A program made the position numbers and the translations under genes. Positions 1 through 12,716 of a DNA stretch of 14,754 bases are shown one piece after another. Source of the stretch: a virus (Duplodnaviria > Heunggongvirae > Uroviricota > Caudoviricetes); IMG/VR virus record IMGVR_UViG_2660238499_000008; one strand, written 5' to 3'. The notes beneath the pieces are model-generated. The model was not told where the DNA came from and did no database searches. It saw nothing but the letters and a program-made list of their open reading frames with translations. How positions within the stretch are numbered: the stretch's first letter is position 1; each line of letters starts with the position of its first letter.

Positions 1-1260
1 ATGCCAAAACTCACAGACATGCAGATCCGCGCATGGATAAAGGCCGGGGAGCGATTCGAGGGACGCTCTGACGGTAACGGGCTTTATCTTTCATACCGCG
101 AAAACTACCAGACCCCCGTCTGGCGATTCCGCTATAAATTCGCAGGGAAACCCCGCGCCATGCTGATTGGCTCATATGCCGAGCTATCACTATCAAAGGC
201 CAGAGAGACAGCCAAAGAGCTATCGGCTCGCGTTGCGCTGGGCTATGACGTTGCAGGAGAGAAGCAGAAGCGCAAAACCGAAGCACTGGCGAAGATGGAA
301 GCAGAGAAGAACGCTATGCGCGTTTCAGAGCTTGCCGCTGAATACTTTGAGCGTCAGATCCTCCCGCGCTGGAAGCACCCCGATATACTCCGCCGCCGTA
401 TCGACAAAGATATAAACCCATGCATTGGCAGCATGAAGGTAGAGGGCGTGAAACCGCGCCATATCGATGACATGCTGAAAGGTATTGTTGACCGTGGAGC
501 GCCGACCATAGCAACGGACGTGCTGAGATGGACGCGCCGCATATTCGACTACGGAATCAAACGGCACGCGCTGGAGATTAACCCATGTTCAGCCTTTGAG
601 GTGGCAGACGCCGGAGGGAAAGAAGTTGCCCGTGACCGCTGGTTAACCCGCGATGAGTTAATCCAGCTATTCAAAGCCATGCGCACGGCTAAGGGATTCA
701 GTCGCCAGAACGAAATCACGTTCAAATTACTGTTAGCGTTATGCGTCCGCAAAATGGAGTTATGCGCCGCCCGCTGGGAGGAGTTCGATTTTGATAAAGC
801 CGTATGGCATTTACCAGAGGAACGCAGCAAAAACGGCGACGCTATAGACATTCCATTAGCACCGCCAGCCGTCGAATGGCTGAGAGAGCTTAAAACGTTC
901 TCATGCAACAGCGCATGGGTACTGCCAGCCAGAAAGATGCAAAACCGCATGATCCCCCATATTCAGGAAAGCACCCTGCCCGTAGCACTGGCTAAGGTTC
1001 GCGCCGAAATGCCGGACGTGCCGAATTTCACGATTCACGACTTCCGACGCACGGCCCGCACCCATTTAGCAGCGCTGGGCGTTGATCCGGTAGTGGCTGA
1101 AAGATGCCTTAATCACAAAATTAAAGGCGTGGAGGGTATCTATAACCGTCACCAGTATTTTGATGAGCGTAAAGCGGCGCTGGCGCAGTGGTGTGATTTG
1201 CTGGTGGCACTGGAGAGCGGTGAAGATTACAACGTCACGCCGATAAAAAAGGCTAATTAA
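1..1260 (+). CDS. int: Tyrosine recombinase / integrase, P4 / CP4-57 (IntA) type
   Basis: 419-aa ORF. N-terminal arm-binding-like region (MPKLTDMQIRAWIK...GLYLSYREN...WRFRYKFAGK) typical of P4-family integrases. C-terminal catalytic region with H-x-x-R (FTIHDFRRTART) and candidate catalytic Tyr near the C-terminus (GIYNRHQYF). ORF begins exactly at window position 1, so promoter and attL are not visible. Confidence 0.93.
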   Translation: MPKLTDMQIRAWIKAGERFEGRSDGNGLYLSYRENYQTPVWRFRYKFAGKPRAMLIGSYAELSLSKARETAKELSARVALGYDVAGEKQKRKTEALAKMEAEKNAMRVSELAAEYFERQILPRWKHPDILRRRIDKDINPCIGSMKVEGVKPRHIDDMLKGIVDRGAPTIATDVLRWTRRIFDYGIKRHALEINPCSAFEVADAGGKEVARDRWLTRDELIQLFKAMRTAKGFSRQNEITFKLLLALCVRKMELCAARWEEFDFDKAVWHLPEERSKNGDAIDIPLAPPAVEWLRELKTFSCNSAWVLPARKMQNRMIPHIQESTLPVALAKVRAEMPDVPNFTIHDFRRTARTHLAALGVDPVVAERCLNHKIKGVEGIYNRHQYFDERKAALAQWCDLLVALESGEDYNVTPIKKAN

Positions 1261-2203: not shown

Positions 2204-2287
2204 AAATGCTTATCGAAAGTTTGCTTTGGTTTATGCCTCAATTTTTTAATCATACCCGTAACAACGCAGAAAGGAGTTACGGGAAGC

Positions 2288-2491
2288 ATGAGCACAGAAA
2301 CTATTCCTACCAGCGGCTATATCCGCCGCTTTCGTTTAGCGAGCCATCTTGGCGTCCACGTCACAACAGTAGATCGCTGGGTCCGCGAGAAACGCATTCC
2401 AGCACCCGTCAAATTGGGTGAGAAGATTACCGCCTTTGATGCGGTAGAGATTAACAACTGGCTGGCAGAGCGTCGGGGAAAGGTGGCGTAA
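2288..2491 (+). CDS. alpA: AlpA-family phage transcriptional regulator (HTH)
   Basis: 67-aa ORF with good RBS (aaaggag). Sequence RFRLASHLGVHVTTVDRWVREKRIPAPVKLGEKITAFDAVEINNWLAERRG matches the AlpA / prophage CP4-57 regulator pattern (HTH followed by PxPVKLG and W-acidic C-terminus). Confidence 0.88.
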   Translation: MSTETIPTSGYIRRFRLASHLGVHVTTVDRWVREKRIPAPVKLGEKITAFDAVEINNWLAERRGKVA

Positions 2492-2940: not shown

Positions 2941-3774
2941 ATGAACATCGAAAAAAGCAGATTAATTTCTGAGGCCGCCCCTCATCTGAACGCCTATCAG
3001 GGCACAATTAACGGTAATGAATTTGCCGCAATTGTCCCGGTTATTCCTGGTCATATCGGTGGGCGTGAAACCAATATTGTTAGCGCAAAAGCGTTACACA
3101 AAGCGTTGGGCGTGGGAAAAGACTTCTCTACATGGATCACTGATCGCATCTCTGAATATGACTTCACCATTGGGCACGATTACTCAGTCCATAAAACAAT
3201 TTCCCCAAATCTGGGGAAAAGCCCGAATGGCGCGGCTTACAGCAAGATTAAACAGTCTGGCAGACCCGGCAAAGACTATCTGTTAAGTGTCGGAATGGCG
3301 AAAGAACTGGCAATGATCGAACGCACCGAACAGGGCCGCGCTATCCGCCGTTATTTCATCCAGTGCGAGGAAGAATTACAGCGTAGCGTGCCTGAAATCG
3401 CCGCCCGCTATCGTCGCCAGCTAAAAGCCCGTATCAGTGCCGCCAACCTGTTTAAACCGATGTGCGTAGCGCTGGAAAGCGCCCGCGCAGAACAGGGTAA
3501 ACAGACGCAGGCTCGCCACTACAGCAACGAGAGCAACATGATCGCCCGTATCGTGCTGGGTGGCATGACGGCGAAGCAGTGGGCGCAGGCAAATGGCATT
3601 ACTGGCGAACCACGGGACAGCATGAACGCAGCACAGCTTGAACACCTCGCCTATCTCGAAAGCACCAATATCACGTTAATTGATATGGGTATGGGATATG
3701 ACCTGCGTAAAGCCGAGCTAATCCGCCTCTCTCAGCGCTGGTTAGCTAAACATCTGGGGGCTAATCATGCTTAA
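2941..3774 (+). CDS. Phage antirepressor, AntA-like N-terminal domain plus KilA-C (ANT) C-terminal domain
   Basis: 277-aa ORF, RBS ggag 6-7 nt upstream. N-terminal segment (NIVSAKALHKALGVGKDFSTWITDRISEYDFTIGHDY) resembles the AntA domain. Central segment (GRPGKDYLLSVGMAKELAMIERTEQGRAIRRYFIQCEEEL) resembles the KilA-C antirepressor domain. Confidence 0.82.
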   Translation: MNIEKSRLISEAAPHLNAYQGTINGNEFAAIVPVIPGHIGGRETNIVSAKALHKALGVGKDFSTWITDRISEYDFTIGHDYSVHKTISPNLGKSPNGAAYSKIKQSGRPGKDYLLSVGMAKELAMIERTEQGRAIRRYFIQCEEELQRSVPEIAARYRRQLKARISAANLFKPMCVALESARAEQGKQTQARHYSNESNMIARIVLGGMTAKQWAQANGITGEPRDSMNAAQLEHLAYLESTNITLIDMGMGYDLRKAELIRLSQRWLAKHLGANHA

Positions 3775-3945
3775 TGCCGCCATCCAGAATAAAGCCTTTC
3801 CCCTGGCTGGCCTGATGTATGCAAATGTTAACGTCTGGAGCAAAGCAGCCCGCCGCCAGATTGCGACAAATAGCGACGTTTGGAACCTGTCAAAACCTGA
3901 CATTTGCCACCGCCAGATCTTTACAAATCTTGGTGTTTTCGGGAC

Positions 3946-4176
3946 AAGTACGCACGCGCATGAATGCGAAGCTGGCATAACAGTGCCAGCTAATGCCATC
4001 TCCTCATTTTCTCGTCGTGGTGACGAGGAGAGTTTCGAGACCAGTACGCGCACGAAGATTTATTGGGGGTCACTACGCGAGGAAGATTTTCCCATCATCA
4101 CTACACGAGGCGGGAAGATTTTTCTGACATCACCACTAGATGCAGGGAATTTATGCAACAGTACGCGCACGCGCGA
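3946..4176. repeat. Repeat-rich, probably non-coding region: three direct copies of GTACGCRCRCG and three degenerate tandem ~30-bp units (GAAGATTT...TCACTACRCGAGG)
   Basis: GTACGC(A/G)C(A/G)CG at 3948-3959, 4044-4054 and 4161-4175. Tandem ~30-bp units at about 4052-4082, 4081-4110 and 4113-4142. A GC-stem/UUCG-loop hairpin at about 4388-4407 followed by a U-rich tract. The 311-aa ORF the track draws across this region has low-complexity, non-protein-like composition. Confidence 0.5.
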
Positions 4177-4510
4177 AGGTGAGTTTCTGGAGTCCATAAA
4201 AAAGGGCTTGCCGACTATCGCCAACCCGGTTTATGGTTATAGCGCACCAGCAAAATCTGGTGTCGGGATTGGAACCCCGAACACACTAAGGGCGACACAG
4301 ACGCCGAAAGCGTCTTTTTTTGTGTCCATTCACTACGCACATCAAATCAGCGGACTTACCCGTACTGTATCAATGGTGGCGTTAGTGGGGCTACGTTCGC
4401 GTAGGCCGGTTTCCTTTGTGTCCGGTAGTTCCAACCCTGCTAACGTCACCGCCACTATTAAGATTGGAACCTTATGCGGTGACTCCTTAAACACAAAGGA
4501 GGCTGCCATA

Positions 4511-4702
4511 ATGGCTACTACCCCTACCCAAAAACCGCAATTTATCTGGATTATCGCAGCAGTTCGCCGCGATATGCCGACAATTACCGCCAAAATTCAC
4601 CATATCGCCGCAGAGACTGAGCAGGAAGCCCGCCGCATTCTGGCGCGGGATCACGTTTGCTTTTTTGCCGGACGTATTCGCACAGGGGGCGCACATGCTT
4701 AA
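4511..4702 (+). CDS. Small protein, possibly host cell-division-inhibitor Icd-like
   Basis: 63-aa reading frame (MATTPTQKPQFIWIIAAVRRD...ARRILARDHVCFFAGRI) with its own strong RBS (aggagg 8 nt before ATG at 4511), embedded at the 3' end of the long track ORF 3767-4702. The Icd-like assignment is from recalled similarity to small proteins of P4-like prophages and is not verified. Confidence 0.45.
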   Translation: MATTPTQKPQFIWIIAAVRRDMPTITAKIHHIAAETEQEARRILARDHVCFFAGRIRTGGAHA

Positions 4703-6077: not shown

Positions 6078-6419
6078 ATGATTACTAAAAATTTCCGACT
6101 GAATGCGCTGGCGAATAAGTATGCGTCGGCACTGTATAACCACATTACCTCCACCAGCGGCGGTGACTATTTCATGGTTGATGCGGACGGCCTCGCCGTC
6201 CGTGTGGAAATCGTCAATGGAGTAAAAGGCTTTCGCAGCCTGATCGATAGCTACACACTGGCAGCCATGAAAGTGTCCTACCCGCAGTGGGAAACCGTGG
6301 GGATCGCGCTTCTTGAGCGTTGCGTCACTAAGGACGGATTAACTGACGTCGGGCGCGAGATATGGCAAAGCATGGTTAAAGACATGGGCGCGACCGTGGC
6401 AGGGGGCAACCATGCGTAA
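6078..6419 (+). CDS. Hypothetical protein
   Basis: 113-aa ORF with strong RBS (gaggggg); its stop overlaps the primase start (ATGCGTAA). Confidence 0.6.
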   Translation: MITKNFRLNALANKYASALYNHITSTSGGDYFMVDADGLAVRVEIVNGVKGFRSLIDSYTLAAMKVSYPQWETVGIALLERCVTKDGLTDVGREIWQSMVKDMGATVAGGNHA

Positions 6420-9177
6420 TATCGATCTTATCCGCGAAGTGACCAGTGCCGCCGCCGGGCGCTGGCCTTATGTGCTGGCTGGATTGTCTATCGACGTGCC
6501 TGATTCATCGCGCCGCCATTCTCCATGCCCTGCATGTGGTGGAAAAGACCGTTTCAGATTCGACGACAACGGGCGCGGTAGCTTTATCTGCAATCAGTGT
6601 GGCGCTGGTGACGGTTTAGACCTGATTAAGAAGGTGAACAACTGCGACACTACGGAGGCGGCACAGCTTGCCGCTGATGTGCTGGGTATTGATTACCGGG
6701 CAGCGCAAACCGACCCGGTGGCAGCGAGCCATAGAAGAGAGCAACTGGAAGCTGACCGCCAGCAGCGTGAGCAGGAGCGCCAGAAACAGGCAGCAGAGGA
6801 TGCAGAGCAGCGAAGGGCTACGTTTGCCCGTCTGTATGCCGGAATGCGCCAGAGTGCCACACAGGGAGAATCTGATTACCTGCAATCAAAAGGGCTGACC
6901 GGGTTTAACTATCCGGTTATGCCGGATGGTTCGTTATTGCTGGAGCTGGTGGACGAATCCGGCGCAGTGGCAGCAGCGCAAACCATTACACCGCAGGGAG
7001 AGAAGCGACTCCTGACAGGTTCAGCAAAGCGCGGGGCATATCACGCCGTAAACGCACCAGAACAGCCGCAGAGCGTATTAATTGCCGAGGGGCTGGCGAC
7101 GGCCCTGTCCGTTCACCTGATGCGCCCGGACGCGCTTACAGTGGCGGCAATTGACGCCGGGAACCTGATCCACGTTGCCGGAGTAATGCGCCGGAAACAC
7201 CCGCAGTCGCAAATTATCATTGCCGCAGATAACGACCACCAGCAGGACGAACAGGCGAACACGGGCAAAGATGCCGCAGAGAAAGCCGCCTTATCCGTGG
7301 CTGGCTGGGTGGCGCTGCCGCCGACAGACTACAAAGCCGACTGGGACGACTACCGCCAGCAAAACGGGCTGGAAGTCGCTACGGCTGCGTTTAACGATTC
7401 GATGTACCAGATTCAGGGGGAAGCCGTGAAACCGCGATTGCAAGCCATTGAGGGCGGTAAAACTGACCATCCAGAGAAAGACCCACTAAAACCCCACATT
7501 GAGAGCCGAAAAGATGGCGTTTTCTGGGTAACGCCGAAGGTGGACAAGGAAAGCGGGGAGATCATCAACGCTGAAAGCTGGTTATGTTCACCGCTGGAGG
7601 TTATCGGCACGGGACGCGACGACAAAGATCAGTATCTTATTATCTCATGGCTGGCATTTGGTGCAGGCATACCGACAACAGCGGCTATCCCGCTGGCTGA
7701 TATTGGCGAGCGTGAAGGCTGGCGCACCCTGAAAGCTGGTGGCGTCAACGTCACAACGAAAAACAGCCTACGGGCGATTCTTGCCGACTGGTTACAGCGA
7801 AGCGGCTCGCGTGAATTGTGGCGCGTTGCTCATGCTACAGGCTGGCAGTGCGGGGCATACATCATGCCGGACGGGGAAATCATCGGCACACCTGAGCGGC
7901 CTGTTTTGTTCAGCGGGCGCAGTTCAGCCGCTGCCGGGTATACCGTAGCAGGAACGTCGGAAAGCTGGCGTAACAGTGTTGCGCGGCTGGCATACGGTAA
8001 TTACGCGATGATGACAGGCATCGCCGCAGCACTGGCAGCGCCATTAATCGGGGTGGCAGATCGTGACGGATTCGGGATTCATTTTTATGAGCAATCGAGC
8101 GCCGGGAAAACAACCACGCAGAACGTGGCGAGCAGTCTATACGGCAACCCTGATGCCTTGCGCCTGACGTGGTACGGGACGGCGCTGGGGCTGATAAACG
8201 AGGCCGCCGCCCACAATGACGGGCTGATGCCACTGGATGAAGTCGGACAGGGCGCTGACCCGATAAGCGTTTCTCAGTCTGCCTATGCCCTGTTTAACGG
8301 CGTGGGGAAATTGCAGGGAGCAAAGGAAGGAGGCAACCGGGATCTGAAACGCTGGCGCACCGTGGCAATCAGCACCGGGGAAGTGGACTTAGAAACCTTC
8401 ATCGCCACCGCCGGACGCAAGACCAAAGCCGGGCAACTGGTGCGCTTGCTGAATATCCCGTTAAGTAAGGCGGTGCGCTTTCATGAACACCAGACAGGGA
8501 AAGAACACGCCGACGCGCTGAAAGATGCTTATCAGCACCATCATGGCGCTGCCGGGAGGGAGTGGATCAGATGGCTTTCAGACCACCAGCAACAGGCGAT
8601 TGATGTCGTTCGTGAGTGTGAAGCCCGCTGGCGCAGTCTAATCCCTGCCGACTATGGGGAACAGGTTCACCGTGTAGGGGCAAGATTTGCCATTCTGGAG
8701 GCCGCTTTACTGATGGGTGGCGTGGTTACTGGCTGGGATGCTCAAACGTGCCGGGATGCGATACAGCACGCCTATAACGCATGGCTAAAAGAGTTCGGCA
8801 CGGGGAACAAAGAGCACCAGCAGATCATCGAGCAGGCGGAGGCATTTTTAAATGCCTATGGCCTGAGTCGATTCGCGCCGCTGCCTTACGACCCCGCCAG
8901 CCTGCCGATTCATAATCTGGCTGGATACAGGCAGCGCGGAAATCATGACGATTCACCGATAACGTTTTACACGTTCCCCGACACTTTCGATAAGGATATT
9001 GCTAAGGGGTTTAACAGGCAGCAGGTGGCCCGCGTCCTGAAAGAATCGGGGATGCTTACCCCTTCAGCAGACGGAAAAAAATTTCAGAGGAAAAGCCCGC
9101 GCATTCAGGGGAGGCAGATTAACGTTTACGTTTTGCAATTCCTGCCGGATGGGGAGGAAAGCCAGCCAGGGCAATAA
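6412..9177 (+). CDS. Replicative primase-helicase (P4 alpha-like): N-terminal zinc ribbon, TOPRIM domain, C-terminal Walker-A/B NTPase
   Basis: 921-aa ORF. Zinc-ribbon CPACGG...FICNQCG near the N-terminus. TOPRIM-like acidic motifs (IAEGLATA; IIAADNDHQQDE). Walker A-like SSAGKTT and Walker B-like LMPLDEV in the C-terminal half. Immediately followed by an iteron array. Confidence 0.9.
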   Translation: MRNIDLIREVTSAAAGRWPYVLAGLSIDVPDSSRRHSPCPACGGKDRFRFDDNGRGSFICNQCGAGDGLDLIKKVNNCDTTEAAQLAADVLGIDYRAAQTDPVAASHRREQLEADRQQREQERQKQAAEDAEQRRATFARLYAGMRQSATQGESDYLQSKGLTGFNYPVMPDGSLLLELVDESGAVAAAQTITPQGEKRLLTGSAKRGAYHAVNAPEQPQSVLIAEGLATALSVHLMRPDALTVAAIDAGNLIHVAGVMRRKHPQSQIIIAADNDHQQDEQANTGKDAAEKAALSVAGWVALPPTDYKADWDDYRQQNGLEVATAAFNDSMYQIQGEAVKPRLQAIEGGKTDHPEKDPLKPHIESRKDGVFWVTPKVDKESGEIINAESWLCSPLEVIGTGRDDKDQYLIISWLAFGAGIPTTAAIPLADIGEREGWRTLKAGGVNVTTKNSLRAILADWLQRSGSRELWRVAHATGWQCGAYIMPDGEIIGTPERPVLFSGRSSAAAGYTVAGTSESWRNSVARLAYGNYAMMTGIAAALAAPLIGVADRDGFGIHFYEQSSAGKTTTQNVASSLYGNPDALRLTWYGTALGLINEAAAHNDGLMPLDEVGQGADPISVSQSAYALFNGVGKLQGAKEGGNRDLKRWRTVAISTGEVDLETFIATAGRKTKAGQLVRLLNIPLSKAVRFHEHQTGKEHADALKDAYQHHHGAAGREWIRWLSDHQQQAIDVVRECEARWRSLIPADYGEQVHRVGARFAILEAALLMGGVVTGWDAQTCRDAIQHAYNAWLKEFGTGNKEHQQIIEQAEAFLNAYGLSRFAPLPYDPASLPIHNLAGYRQRGNHDDSPITFYTFPDTFDKDIAKGFNRQQVARVLKESGMLTPSADGKKFQRKSPRIQGRQINVYVLQFLPDGEESQPGQ

Positions 9178-9201
9178 TCTTTTTCACGTGCGAGGTTTTT
9201 T

Positions 9202-9462
9202 GTGGTGGTTCAGGTGGTTCAGGTGGTTCAGTAAGTAATTGTTATTGATTTATAATGTTTTTTTGTAAGAAATTGAACCACCACTGAACCACCAAACGGG
9301 TATTTTGAACCACCAGAGAGAAACGGATTATTTTCACTGGCTGGCAGTGAACCACCAAGAAGGGCGACTGAACCACCAGATAAATTTAAAAGGTGGTTCA
9401 GCAAAACCCAGAGTTGGCGCGGCCTAGAGGGGTACTGAACCACCTGAACCACCTGAACCACC
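9202..9462. repeat. Iteron-type origin of replication: 12 copies of the 8-bp core GGTGGTTC / GAACCACC
   Basis: Three tandem 9-bp units GTGGTTCAG at 9205-9231 (forward). AT-rich spacer at about 9232-9272. Six dispersed copies (9274-9282, 9284-9293, 9306-9314, 9347-9356, 9368-9377 reverse; 9392-9401 forward). Three tandem reverse units at 9436-9462, followed by a T-rich/AT tract. Position directly after the primase-helicase gene matches P4 ori/crr-type logic. Confidence 0.82.
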
Positions 9463-9566
9463 AACTTTTTTGTTTATATACCAATAAATCTGGCGAAGGT
9501 GTCCCACAATAAGACGGAGCCGGGTAATCTTCATTAGCAAAACTAATAATTCGAGGTATTCGCAAA

Positions 9567-10028
9567 ATGACAGCACAGATATCAGCCTACGGGCGTTTAG
9601 TCGCAGACCCCCAGACCCGCACCACAACGAACGGTGCAAGCATGGCAATGGGACGGTTAGCGGTGGCACTGCCCTGCCATGCAGCAGAGGGCGGAGAGGT
9701 TACTTTCTGGCTGGGCGTGGTGGCATTCGGCAAACAGGCCGACGCACTGGCAGGACACGTTAAAGGCGATTTAGTCAGTGTTGCCGGAGCGATGCAGATC
9801 AATCAGTGGACGGGCAAGGATGGCGGTACACAGCAAGGTTATCAGGTAGTGGCCGACAGCGTGATCAGCGCCAGAACGGTACGCCCCGGCGGGAAGCGGG
9901 CCGAATCAGTCAAAGCAAGCGGAGCCAGCAGGGGCCACACAACACAATCCGCGCCGGGATGGGAGTTATATAATACCCCTGATGATTTTGACCAACGCCC
10001 ACCATTCGACGATGAAACGCCATTCTGA
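9567..10028 (+). CDS. ssb: Single-stranded DNA-binding protein (SSB), OB-fold with acidic C-terminal tail
   Basis: 153-aa ORF. N-terminal half aligns by eye with bacterial SSB OB-fold (GRLVADPQTRTTTNG; WLGVVAFGKQADALAGHVKGDLVSVAGAMQINQWT). Gly/Ser-rich linker and C-terminal ...FDDETPF resembling the SSB D-D-D-I-P-F tail. Confidence 0.88.
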   Translation: MTAQISAYGRLVADPQTRTTTNGASMAMGRLAVALPCHAAEGGEVTFWLGVVAFGKQADALAGHVKGDLVSVAGAMQINQWTGKDGGTQQGYQVVADSVISARTVRPGGKRAESVKASGASRGHTTQSAPGWELYNTPDDFDQRPPFDDETPF

Positions 10029-10038
10029 GAGGGAAGAT

Positions 10039-10680
10039 ATGAGTACACAACCCACCATTATCGAGTTAGGCAGCTATCGCTGGCCCAGACATCTCGCAAT
10101 ACACGAAGCAGGTCATGCGATAGCCGCATGGTTTTTCGGCATACAGGAGGTAGAAATTGCGTTATCGGGTAATAACCGAGTGGCAAAAACCTACCTTAGC
10201 GGCGATGTTGATGAGTGTGGAGCCGTCGCGGTATGGCACGCCAACTATCCACGGAATGTGGCTGAGGTTAAGTCTTACACCCTCTCGAACGATGACGCCA
10301 GATTACGTCTGATAGACCAGGTATGCCGGGATATGGTTATCTCTCTGGCTGGTATCGTCGCGCAATCACGCTATACGGGGGATGATATTAACGCACTGAT
10401 GGAAACGTCCGGGAAAGCAGACATGAAAAATGTTCGTGATTTATCAGAGGTATACCGGGTGGCTGGTGGAGAGGATGCTGATATACAGAGAATATCACTT
10501 TCCCGTGCTGAGGCGCTGATTGCCCTGAAATGGTGGGATGTTATCGCGCTGGCGAAAATACTGGAGAACCGTAACCATATGCCTGCCAGAAACTTCCAGC
10601 GCATTATGGGTGATATTGACAAGCCTGTACCAAAGCCTATGACGCTGGCTGAACTGGATGAATTGGTGGGTGAAGAATGA
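10039..10680 (+). CDS. Putative zinc metallopeptidase (HExxH motif; ImmA/IrrE-like or FtsH-like HEAGH)
   Basis: 213-aa ORF from ATG at 10039 (RBS gagggaag). Motif LAIHEAGHAIAAW encoded at about 10093-10131 (HEAGH at 10102-10116). Family not resolved and third metal ligand not identified. Confidence 0.55.
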   Translation: MSTQPTIIELGSYRWPRHLAIHEAGHAIAAWFFGIQEVEIALSGNNRVAKTYLSGDVDECGAVAVWHANYPRNVAEVKSYTLSNDDARLRLIDQVCRDMVISLAGIVAQSRYTGDDINALMETSGKADMKNVRDLSEVYRVAGGEDADIQRISLSRAEALIALKWWDVIALAKILENRNHMPARNFQRIMGDIDKPVPKPMTLAELDELVGEE

Positions 10681-11027
10681 AGCCATACATTCTGGCAGCC
10701 GTCCTGATCTCATCGGCACCGGCACTATCTGCTATCCATTGTGGGGGCTTTACTATACAGCCAGACCGTTATCGGACAACGATTAACGGCGATGTGGTTC
10801 ATATTGTTGATGCGCAATTTTACGGCGCACCGCGAGACTTTAGCCAGGCCGCCATAAAGTTATTGCCGGATGCCATTACCACTACCGACAGGCAATACCG
10901 ACTGGAGACGCAGGGAAGCAATGCCTTGCTTGAGTTGATGACCAGAGAAAACCCGCCACGTGTGCTTAATCGTGAGCGCTGCGATGCCGGGCTAACAGGC
11001 TTTTACTGGTACTCGTCTGTGCCGTGA
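10677..11027 (+). CDS. Small exported protein with N-terminal signal peptide
   Basis: 116-aa ORF; start overlaps the stop of the HExxH gene (ATGA). N-terminus MKPYILAAVLISSAPALSA has a positive n-region, hydrophobic core and AxA-like cleavage site. Confidence 0.6.
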   Translation: MKPYILAAVLISSAPALSAIHCGGFTIQPDRYRTTINGDVVHIVDAQFYGAPRDFSQAAIKLLPDAITTTDRQYRLETQGSNALLELMTRENPPRVLNRERCDAGLTGFYWYSSVP

Positions 11028-11096
11028 GGTTCGCACCGAACGCAGGCTAAAATTCTAGACTGTTCTTGACAGATTTTAAACCCAAGTAGCGCTAAA

Positions 11097-11195
11097 CCCG
11101 CGCCAGCAGAGGGCTGGAAACCAGAGCGTGATTTAGGTCGTCCAGAATATTCTGGTTCGCGCCACTGGTACGCAGTACGCAGTCAGGTACGCAGC
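11097..11195 (+). promoter_or_regulatory. Regulatory module copy A: CTGGAAACCAG dyad, perfect 14-bp palindrome CCAGAATATTCTGG, and three GTACGCAG heptamer repeats
   Basis: CTGGAAACCAG at 11114-11124; CCAGAATATTCTGG at 11142-11155; (G)TACGCAG at 11168-11175, 11176-11182 and 11187-11194. About 50 bp upstream of the TerS-like gene. About 85 bp is recognisably duplicated at 11692-11776. Confidence 0.5.
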
Positions 11196-11241: not shown

Positions 11242-11619
11242 ATGAAAAAAAATAGCCAACAATCAAGATCCGGATGGGGTGGCAAGCGGAAAGGCGCAGG
11301 CGCACCGTTGGGCAATACTAATGCCGTCAAACATGGCGAACGCAGTAGGCGGGCATTCTTCCCGTTTGAGGGAGAAGATGCGCTTTCTCCGCTGGTGCGA
11401 AATCGTGCAAGAAACCTCATGATGGCTGAGAGATACGGGCTATTACTGGCGACTAATCCGACGCCGGGAACAGAAGAATGGCGCGAGATGACATTGATTA
11501 ACGGACTCATGGGGCTACATGCCGACAGAATCGCACGGCTTGAGCTGAGTTTAGCGAGATCCGTTTCAATGCAAGCAAGGCGGGATCTGCGAAGGGTTAA
11601 AAAAAACGGCGCATGTTAG
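11242..11619 (+). CDS. Small basic protein with GxPxGNxNAxKHG motif; possible terminase small-subunit-like / packaging-redirecting protein
   Basis: 125-aa ORF. N-terminus GGKRKGAGAPLGNTNAVKHGERS resembles a motif I associate with phage small-terminase-family proteins (recalled, not verified). No large terminase or capsid genes in the element. Confidence 0.5.
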   Translation: MKKNSQQSRSGWGGKRKGAGAPLGNTNAVKHGERSRRAFFPFEGEDALSPLVRNRARNLMMAERYGLLLATNPTPGTEEWREMTLINGLMGLHADRIARLELSLARSVSMQARRDLRRVKKNGAC

Positions 11620-11873: not shown

Positions 11874-12485
11874 GTGAGAGACAGAACGCGCAGCTATATC
11901 ACCGACCTGCCCCGTATAGGGTTGCCATTCCTTGCGAACATGCGTAGCAGGCTGGCGGACGCCGAACCGGGGACGCAGCTTTATACCCAGACCGAAAGCG
12001 GAACGTTGTATACCTTCCGGCAAGCCGACAGCTACGCCATGACAATCAACGGCGTTACACGGGCAATCAGAACCACGACCACACAAGCCGGGTATGGTGT
12101 GCGGGAATGGTACGTCTGTCCCCACTGCATAAAGCGGGTAGCGAAGCTGTATATCGGCAAAAAAGATATTGGCTGCCGGGGATGCTGGAAACTCCACTAT
12201 AAAAGCCAGAGCGCCGACAGACTGGACAGGATGCGAATGAAGATACGCCAGCAGCGATGCGCGATATGGGGAAGCAATGACCTTGCCAATAATCTGTTTA
12301 ATGACATTCGCATGTTCCCAAAACCAAAGGGGATGCGCTGGGCTACGTTTGACAGGAAGCGGGCAGAGTTATCAGTTATGGAGATGGCTTACTGGCAGGC
12401 ATTCAGTCCGGTAGTAGATAGAATCAGGGGCATGGTTGAGCGTAAGACGGGGAAAGCAGCCAGAGGCATTGGCCTGACTTTGTAA
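11874..12485 (+). CDS. Hypothetical protein with C4 zinc-ribbon (CPHC...CRGC)
   Basis: 203-aa ORF starting at GTG 11874, 7 nt after a perfect AGGAGG (alternative ATG at 11939). CxxC pairs CPHC and CRGC separated by 16 residues. Preceded by regulatory module B. A 6-bp stem hairpin follows the stop (about 12489-12505) but has no U-tract. Confidence 0.65.
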   Translation: MRDRTRSYITDLPRIGLPFLANMRSRLADAEPGTQLYTQTESGTLYTFRQADSYAMTINGVTRAIRTTTTQAGYGVREWYVCPHCIKRVAKLYIGKKDIGCRGCWKLHYKSQSADRLDRMRMKIRQQRCAIWGSNDLANNLFNDIRMFPKPKGMRWATFDRKRAELSVMEMAYWQAFSPVVDRIRGMVERKTGKAARGIGLTL

Positions 12486-12716
12486 AAGCAAAACGCCCGC
12501 ACGGGGCGTCAAGGAACGGGATAGACTTCTGCGACAATTTGCATTCGCCGCCAATATAGCAAGCCGTCCACATCAAGCAATAAACTATCACCGGGAGGGG
12601 GAGGCCAAATCTCTGCAACCCTGAGCCTTAAGGACTGCCCGCCCCATCGTTTTTTTATACCCGCGAAAAATGAAATTTAATCCGGGCGTGTTTCATCCTT
12701 CCAGAGGGTATGACGT

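Follow-up and report, generated by a model that had tools for sequence, protein, structure and literature searches.

In the Gram-negative phage-inducible chromosomal island (PICI) EcCICFT073, a segment spanning pri-rep and ori maintains a plasmid, and deletion of either part abolishes or reduces this maintenance, with the origin of this PICI type consisting of two iteron sets that flank an AT-rich region (PMC6092414). The origins of Staphylococcus aureus pathogenicity islands (SaPIs) have an AT-rich centre and 6-12 iterons, located immediately after rep, which the C-terminal winged helix of Rep recognises; SaPI Reps load themselves as helicases and bind and melt without ATP, and the DUF927 protein Cch is related to SaPIbov1 Rep (PMC9371898, PMC7581432). 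In addition, Cch2 binds three direct repeats downstream of its own gene (PMC7581432). Here we describe a stretch of viral DNA of 14,754 nucleotides (IMG/VR record IMGVR_UViG_2660238499_000008; hereafter the window), in which an array of 12 copies of a 9-bp word lies between pri-rep, encoding a primase-helicase initiator, and ssb, encoding a single-stranded DNA-binding protein (SSB), the same location as in EcCICFT073 and in the published PICI EcCIRM13514. We conclude, with a probability of roughly 0.85, that this array is the vegetative replication origin of a Gram-negative PICI-type satellite inserted between yicC and dinD, because its position, its comparative anatomy, its covariation with the initiator and the precedent of the described systems all point to this function. 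An earlier note on this DNA had read the array as an iteron origin for the adjacent primase-helicase, a proposal that gains support on these same four grounds, the function itself being deduced from them. Origins of this kind are already known, and the unusual part is the 9-base recognition word.

Anatomy and conservation of the iteron array

A pattern scan of the whole window identified 12 exact matches to GGTGGTTC, four on the + strand (starting at 9204, 9213, 9222 and 9392) and eight on the − strand (starting at 9275, 9286, 9307, 9349, 9370, 9437, 9446 and 9455), every one of them within 9204-9462 and none elsewhere, which reproduces the count of 12 copies within about 260 bp given in the earlier note. 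When one mismatch was allowed, 26 matches were found, compared with 8.9 ± 3.2 in shuffled sequences, a number reached in 0 of 200 shuffles; the one-mismatch copies are scattered singles that form no second cluster in the window. The invariant core at 12 of 12 sites is the 9-mer GGTGGTTCA/TGAACCACC, and the tenth base is G in 9 of 12. The first site lies 27 nt past the pri-rep stop codon at 9177, and the layout is very regular, with the 12 sites grouped as 3, 3, 2, 1 and 3 at centre-to-centre spacings of 9, 9, 54, 11, 21, 42, 21, 21, 46, 9 and 9. The sites of the triplets are contiguous, and the inner sites are helically phased, at multiples of ~10.5 bp.

The AT-rich segment 9232-9272 follows the left triplet and precedes the first three inner sites, where the earlier note had placed it, and has a GC content of 14.6% over 41 bp compared with 51.8% for the whole window. 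The array thereby has the arrangement of opposed iterons around an AT-rich region typical of PICI and SaPI origins: three + sites, the 41-bp tract and three − sites. The idea of a symmetric inverted structure around an AT core holds for the outer triplets, which are included in a perfect 31-nt inverted repeat (9203-9233 and 9433-9463) with 199 nt between the arms; it fails for the inner sites, which are asymmetric (five in one orientation and one in the other), and for the AT-rich tract, which is off-centre. No DnaA box TTATCCACA with at most one mismatch is present in the window.

For comparison, a scan of one genome per species yielded 78 loci encoding initiator relatives in Enterobacterales, 57 of which were scorable over the 450 bp past the initiator stop codon. 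The position of the array directly downstream of the initiator gene is the same in the 57 scored relatives as in EcCICFT073 and EcCIRM13514. In about 40 of the 57, spread over many Enterobacterales genera, a repeated word occurs at nearly the offsets seen in the window and with the same orientation pattern, the shared offsets from the stop codon being about 25/34/43, 98/109/130, 172/193, 214 and 260/269/278. A triplet or doublet of the local word about 25-45 nt past the stop codon is found in most relatives (15 of 15 aligned), and the positions of sites 9348..9400 are kept in the relatives with full arrays. At least nine different words occupy this scaffold: TGAACCAAC, which is the commonest, TGAACCGAC, TGAGACAACA, TAACCCGT, TACCCGAC, TTATCCC, TGTTACCA, GTTACACC and the window word TGAACCACC. 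A contig labelled Chryseobacterium sp. (L007, CACSKA010000004.1) contains an Enterobacter-like island whose initiator shares 84% identity with the window initiator; it is probably a contamination or a mislabelled assembly.

The words change in concert. Relative to the closest E. coli relative (L001, strain SW07096, word TGAGACAAC), the substitutions G3>T, G6>T and T7>C separate the two words at 12 of 12 sites. The spacers, at 62% identity, differ irregularly, and beyond 9470 the two sequences agree at 96%. Being uniform within arrays and changing together between arrays, the 12 sites look as binding sites of one sequence-specific factor would. Around the changing words, several non-iteron pieces of the scaffold are kept across word classes. 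These include the AT-tract core TTGATTTATAA(G/T)G, present across most iteron classes in a multi-class alignment, TTGATTTATAAGG in the AT tract, CTGGCTGG, AAAACCCAG..TGGCGCGGC, and CTTTTGCTTATATA past the right triplet. TGGCTGG occurs in the array of 31 of 57 relatives compared with 58 of 358 background windows, TGGCGCGG, again kept across word classes, in 15 of 57 compared with 8 of 358, and TTATATA after the right triplet in 17 of 57 compared with 4 of 358; these three motifs perhaps bind a host factor, take part in priming or provide a −10 element for ssb.

Many relatives possess the left six sites only, that is, the triplet or doublet, the AT tract and three opposed sites (among them L013, L020, L021, L025, L028, L031, L033, L034, L037, L038, L042, L047, L054, L060 and L228), which suggests a minimal origin with an optional right-hand module. 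In one of these loci, an E. coli contig (L228:1241-2156), genes for P22-like injection proteins (DUF2824, P22_gp7) lie no more than 600 bp beyond the half-origin, and this initiator and origin may lie in or beside a P22-like prophage rather than a satellite.

These comparisons bear on two explanations of the array that involve no initiator. The inverted triplets might form a long RNA or DNA hairpin or a cruciform, with a role in processing or termination, to which the inner copies would be incidental. The perfect 31-nt inverted repeat, a single-strand DNA fold of −57.9 kcal/mol (z = −7.9 compared with shuffles) and the covariation of both arms between relatives with pairing preserved would fit such a structure, but the six inner sites carry the same word though no stem requires them, many relatives without the right arm keep 3 + 3 sites around the AT tract, no T-run terminator is present, and no Rfam family fits, the two miRNA-like hairpin matches scoring 21 bits against gathering scores of 65 and 117. 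We consider the hairpin highly improbable. The chance that the array is a fortuitous or coding repeat is negligible. Tandem GGTGGTTCA encodes Gly-Gly-Ser, an open reading frame (ORF) of 78 aa on the − strand (9228-9464) overlaps the array, and most of the 139 loci with exact triplet matches in viral and metagenome collections are unrelated, presumably coding for Gly-Gly-Ser linkers; against this, the copies stand in both orientations at spacings that are not multiples of 3, the region is intergenic in all annotated relatives, and relatives put words that do not encode Gly-Gly-Ser at the same positions, so that the comparative data already refute a coding repeat as far as computation goes.

A true two-orientation array was present in 6 of these 139 loci. 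The TGAACCACC allele was found only in these six metagenome contigs, where the C-terminal domain of the initiator is 99% identical, and in none of 5,426 complete E. coli genomes and none of the 78 species-representative loci. The earlier note had suggested that the initiator specificity may be new; the allele is indeed a rare, new one of a known kind of origin, but it is not unique to the window and is one of at least nine.

The iteron word and the C-terminal domain of the initiator

Pfam assigns a zinc ribbon to residues 34-69 of the initiator (nt 6511-6618), a TOPRIM primase to residues 222-319 (nt 7075-7368) and a DUF927 helicase to residues 367-645 (nt 7510-8346), with the Walker A motif AGKT at residue 564. 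The N-terminal residues 7-331 share 35% identity with the zinc-ribbon/TOPRIM primase of P4 alpha, the helicase and C-terminal domain are unrelated to those of P4 alpha by BLAST, and a sequence search with the initiator matched SaPIbov1 Rep (8tch) and Cch (5dgk) of the staphylococcal cassette chromosome mec (SCCmec). Judged from these matches, the window initiator is a fusion of a P4-like primase with a SaPI/SCCmec-like DUF927 helicase, which is new here.

To describe the part after the DUF927 helicase, we used an AlphaFold model of the last 222 residues, built with 34 homologues (pLDDT 82). It consists of a helical bundle followed by a strand-helix-helix-strand-strand element, a winged helix at residues ~850-910. 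Foldseek comparison with the PDB placed SaPIbov1 Rep (8tch) and SCCmec Cch (5dgk) on top, with E about 2e-5 over ~212 columns and only 13-15% identity in this region, followed by the oriT-binding winged helix of TcpK (5vfx; rmsd about 2 Å over 61 columns). The homologue search with these 222 aa gave gene fragments for the most part, and an identical C-terminal domain was found in none of the full-length proteins; the set served for the structure alignment and one blind test and is unsuited to counting alleles.

Across the word classes, when cores are equally similar, it is the identity of the C-terminal domain that goes with the class. Between the window and L001, whose words differ, the initiators are 92% identical overall, with ~96% in the core and ~57% in the C-terminal domain, and identity falls to 66% and 52% over the last 100 residues. 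Conversely, the metagenome contig L113 carries the same word in a near-identical array, and its initiator agrees with that of the window at 82.9% of positions over residues 1-829 and at 98.9% over the last 92. The same exchange is visible at the nucleotide level, where identity per 100 nt between the window and L001 is 80-100% to about 8900, 51-74% in 8912-9511 and 87-99% beyond, while between the window and L113 it is 63-98% to 8800 and 96-100% in 8812-9511. By these profiles, the block 8850-9480 is apparently inherited as a unit, independent of the rest of the initiator gene and of ssb. No other segment of the window was found to be common to all same-word loci yet divergent in other-word loci.

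The class-diagnostic residues fall in the predicted recognition helix and wing. Residues 893-898 read R-K-S-P-R-I in 24 of 24 CCAAC loci, the wing reads G-R-V-gap-R-E in 7 of 7 GACAAC loci, and Q870, V872 and R874 are common to the window and L016 (word TGAACCGA), whereas the CCAAC loci have K, F and E. In the blind test, the C-terminal domain of an E. coli fragment (P0003) was predicted to belong to the CCAAC class, and its contig contains three GTTGGTTCA, an AT tract and three TGAACCAAC. The initiator of EcCIRM13514 has the reverse relation to P4 alpha from that of the window initiator, as it shares its helicase and C-terminal domain with P4 alpha (49% identity) and has exactly the P4 iteron CTGTTCACC (L223:8555-8800, with P4 as L222), a pattern from which it follows that the word goes with the helicase/C-terminal half and not with the primase half. 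P4 alpha and the EcCIRM13514 initiator might cross-recognise each other's origins.

The predicted iteron reader is hence the C-terminal winged helix (last ~90 residues) and not the N-terminal domain. The earlier note had proposed the N-terminal domain as the fragment to purify for binding, a choice that the data contradict, because the N-terminal part is a P4-alpha-like primase that does not track the iteron word. Taking these observations together, we tentatively propose that 8850-9480 is an exchangeable specificity cassette, existing in at least nine alleles on a near-fixed scaffold, which may amount to a natural recognition code; we regard this full proposal as possible, if somewhat short of probable. 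According to it, helix residues 870, 872 and 874 would be responsible for recognising the 3′ half of the word (CCACC, CCGAC or CCAAC) and wing-loop residues 893-898 for the 5′ half (TGAAC or TGAGA), and the alleles would have diversified under selection that favours orthogonal replicons when satellites encounter one another in the same cell.

In another explanation, the array would chiefly regulate the genes downstream of it instead of starting replication, as a transcriptional operator or insulator that separates pri-rep from the ssb operon and binds the initiator or some other island protein. Iteron-binding initiators often autoregulate, and TTATATA could be a −10 element with a −35 element overlapping the last iteron. 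However, a consensus scan of 9000-9700 found no sigma-70-like promoter or + strand terminator, 12 sites over 260 bp together with an AT-rich unwinding tract far exceed the needs of an operator, and no other island protein tracks the word class, making this explanation very unlikely. An operator role for ssb is compatible with an origin and possible as a secondary function only.

A proposed initiation mechanism and the points against an origin

Anatomy, conservation, concerted word swaps, linkage to the C-terminal domain and the modelled domain fold are what the comparisons display directly, and on this basis we propose the following mechanism. When the early operon is expressed, Pri-Rep would recognise the 9-bp TGAACCACC through its C-terminal winged helix and assemble as hexamers, probably two, on the opposed site sets. 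It would then melt the AT tract independently of DnaA and load itself as the replicative helicase, with its own TOPRIM domain priming synthesis and the SSB from the next gene coating the unwound strands. A minimal origin ('half origin') would consist of the left triplet, the AT tract and the three inner sites, with the right-hand six sites as an optional extension, perhaps a loading platform for the second hexamer or a copy-control or enhancer part.

Several points weigh against the array being the origin. Binding, melting and initiation at the array are carried over from the SaPI and PICI homologues. Only ~30-300 bp separate the array from the sequence that encodes the C-terminal domain, and physical linkage could partly explain their co-inheritance. 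The right-hand six sites are missing in many relatives. P4 initiates replication 4.5 kb away from the iteron cluster that immediately follows its initiator gene, a cluster that constitutes the cis-required region crr, so that position alone is no proof of the start site. Close relatives were deposited as circular 16-22-kb 'plasmids' of Klebsiella and Raoultella with arrays of the same layout, which is consistent with autonomous replication without proving it, as these records may be assembled excision products rather than stable replicons.

Two observations concern the circular records themselves. K. pneumoniae KpvST101_OXA-48 contains two circular 19-22-kb relatives (L225, CP031371.2, and L230, CP031370.2), both with TGAACCAAC-class arrays, and the coexistence of two same-class replicons seems to argue against strict incompatibility. 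A circular 16-kb relative (L226, NZ_CP069874.1) is a capsid-forming PICI-like element with genes for major capsid, protease, portal, connector, HNH and large terminase proteins, which has a shorter DUF927 initiator without the primase part and an 11-site TGAACCAAC array; from this content it follows that the same replicon module serves different satellite types.

By the precedent of P4, the array might instead act in cis as crr does, with the bound initiator enhancing replication or controlling copy number ('handcuffing') there and initiation taking place elsewhere. In the P4 annotation, crr (2 x 120 bp with five type I iterons each) lies directly 3′ of alpha and ori at 9310-9413, and the right-hand six sites, which are dispensable in many relatives, could be a crr-like accessory part. 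Against this stand three features: the window, which spans the island from the int start codon to dinD (attL end excluded), contains no second cluster; the array holds a strongly AT-rich tract between opposed sites, as is typical of a melting site; and in the closer PICI and SaPI relatives the same position is the origin proper. We therefore regard a crr-like site as unlikely and prefer the origin, which assigns a function to the intergenic region and corrects the choice of the domain to purify for binding.

What is new here is the TGAACCACC allele together with a clear view of the exchangeable cassette of winged helix and array. A 12-site scaffold with at least nine 9-bp words matched to winged-helix variants constitutes a set for learning how self-loading helicases read origins, and such a comparative series could supply orthogonal replicons and help to predict cross-replication or exclusion among satellites. 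The current understanding of satellite replication is not overturned.

The island and its place among known systems

The window almost certainly represents a ~13.7-kb PICI-type phage-satellite island at yicC-dinD in an E. coli-like genome, extending from int (position 1) to dinD (13918). Its integrase is 86% identical to that of EcCIRM13514, for which the yicC-dinD site is listed (PMC6092414, Table S1), and in E. coli relatives the island is flanked by yicC and dinD. The content agrees with that of Gram-negative PICIs, which measure 8-15 kb, occupy a specific att site, lack phage lysis and tail genes and have their int, AlpA-type regulator and pri-rep genes running in one direction. The SSB is 61% identical to that of EcCICFT073, which occupies the same place after the origin of that island. 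The window, which begins at the int start codon and leaves attL outside, lacks the published EcCIRM13514 att core GAGCAGATTCAA, and no attR was located. Coordinates are collected in the table.

Features of the window and of its iteron array
Feature	Position	Strand	Remarks
Integrase	1..1260	+	Pfam; marks the element as a yicC-dinD-site PICI relative
Small HTH ORF	2206-2421		No family match in the window scan; annotated as AlpA/HTH in relatives
AntA-type antirepressor	2941-3774		
Ash/Icd-like protein	3767-4702		
pri-rep initiator gene	6412..9177	+	921 aa; zinc ribbon, TOPRIM, DUF927 helicase
Putative specificity cassette	8850..9480	+	Mosaic block of C-terminal-domain coding sequence and whole array (identity per 100 nt)
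Predicted winged helix-turn-helix	8959..9141	+	Residues 850-910; proposed iteron reader
Predicted recognition helix	about residues 869-878		RQQVARVLKE
Predicted wing	about residues 892-910		QRKSPRIQGRQINVYVLQF
Left triplet	9204..9230	+	3 contiguous GGTGGTTCA (9204, 9213, 9222), 9-bp period
AT-rich tract	9232..9272	.	14.6% GC; between oppositely oriented iteron sets; proposed DNA unwinding element
Three inner sites	9274..9314	-	TGAACCACC at 9274-9282, 9285-9293, 9306-9314; spacing 11, 21 bp; opposed to left triplet
Scaffold motif TGGCTGG	9338..9344	+	Non-iteron, conserved
Two further inner sites	9348-9356, 9369-9377		Same orientation as the 9274..9314 sites
Local palindrome	arms 9368-9384 / 9385-9401		Formed by sites 9369-9377 and 9392-9400
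AT spacer	9379-9391		13 bp, 7.7% GC; followed by oppositely oriented site 9392-9400
Scaffold motif TGGCGCGG	9415..9422	+	Non-iteron, conserved; inside AAAACCCAG..TGGCGCGGC
Right triplet	9436..9462	-	3 contiguous TGAACCACC; perfect inverted partner of left triplet
Motif TTATATA	9474-9480		Conserved, directly after right triplet
Island SSB gene	9567..10028	+	Pfam SSB; first gene past the array
dinD	from 13918		

Scans of the window ORFs found no phage structural or lysis domains, and Pfam, PHROGs, NCBIfam and PADLOC scans of the other ORFs were nearly empty, with no packaging, capsid-remodelling or defence function assignable. The 125-aa product of 11242-11619 faintly resembles a small-terminase model (E 7e-4; 19 bits, where the cut-off is 120), a match too weak to call, which would bear on packaging of the island if true. 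The segments 1355-2188, about 9900-11100 and 12000-12600 are missing or variable in otherwise close relatives, have no family matches and are likely accessory island cargo. In the closest whole-island relative (L003, E. coli S43, 9834-10151), and also in L072, the entire replication module is swapped at the same position; L003 is 96% identical to the window elsewhere and carries a P4-family primase-helicase with its own TATCCCTAC iterons and an extra small ORF before ssb.

Among the known systems, iteron plasmids (RepA, pi, TrfA) resemble the window array in having repeated initiator sites beside an AT-rich unwinding element, but their initiators are not helicases and they need DnaA boxes and loading of host DnaB/DnaC, whereas the window initiator carries helicase and primase. 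SCCmec Cch belongs to the same DUF927 helicase family and has the same C-terminal fold, but it lacks a fused primase, and no comparable 12-site origin has been described for Cch.

Satellite P4 has short mixed-orientation iterons bound by the C-terminal domain of the initiator. Its alpha protein has an N-terminal primase homologous to that of the window, and an iteron cluster lies directly 3′ of the initiator gene in both. P4 differs in having two separated clusters, crr 3′ of alpha and ori 4.5 kb away, compared with one cluster in the window, and in its word, the type I iteron GGTGAACAG/CTGTTCACC compared with GGTGGTTCAG. Within the P4-type initiator architecture of primase, D5/SF3 helicase and P4-type C-terminal domain, only the primase is homologous to the window initiator, and in place of the type I iteron (C)TGTTCACC in separate ori and crr, the window has a different word in a single cluster. 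Pfam, PHROGs and NCBIfam scans of the window ORFs gave no matches to P4 sid, delta, psu or epsilon, and an Ash/Icd-like protein is present. The earlier note had called the motif related to but distinct from the P4 type I iteron; the word is indeed distinct, but the likeness is superficial, the helicase and C-terminal domain being of the DUF927/SaPIbov1-Rep/Cch type and not the P4 D5 type. We therefore rejected a P4 relationship of the window replicon, which has only the primase domain in common with P4, and its closest family is PICI/SaPI.

The window shares with SaPIbov1 Rep (8tch) and PriRep5 a self-loading helicase-initiator and 6-12 short downstream iterons opposed around an AT-rich centre, as far as the SaPI origins are described by Ubeda et al. 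2007 in the citations of PMC7581432 and PMC9371898, and its helicase core and C-terminal domain are homologous to SaPIbov1 Rep in both sequence and fold. The helicase initiator with a specificity-setting C-terminal winged helix, typical of PICIs and SaPIs, is recognisable in the window from sequence, model and word tracking, with binding being predicted. It differs from the SaPIs in its Gram-negative host, in its 9-bp iterons compared with 5-6 bp, and in the fused P4-alpha-type zinc-ribbon/TOPRIM primase.

The island itself is classed as a PICI-type satellite whose replicon combines a P4-like primase with a SaPI/SCCmec-like DUF927 helicase. With EcCIRM13514 and EcCICFT073 (PMC6092414), it shares the order of int, HTH regulator, AntA/Rha, Icd-like, pri-rep, array and ssb, and with the Gram-negative PICI origins it shares oppositely oriented 9-bp iterons around an AT-rich tract immediately 3′ of pri-rep. 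We considered that the EcCICFT073 and window origins might be homologous in inverted orientation, with TGGCGCGG shared in reverse, and dropped this idea, as the layouts fail to align. Both published islands have a D5/P4-type helicase ('DNA primase family protein'), whereas that of the window is DUF927, and the three words differ, being TGAACCACC in the window, CTGTCTACC in EcCICFT073 and CTGTTCACC in EcCIRM13514.

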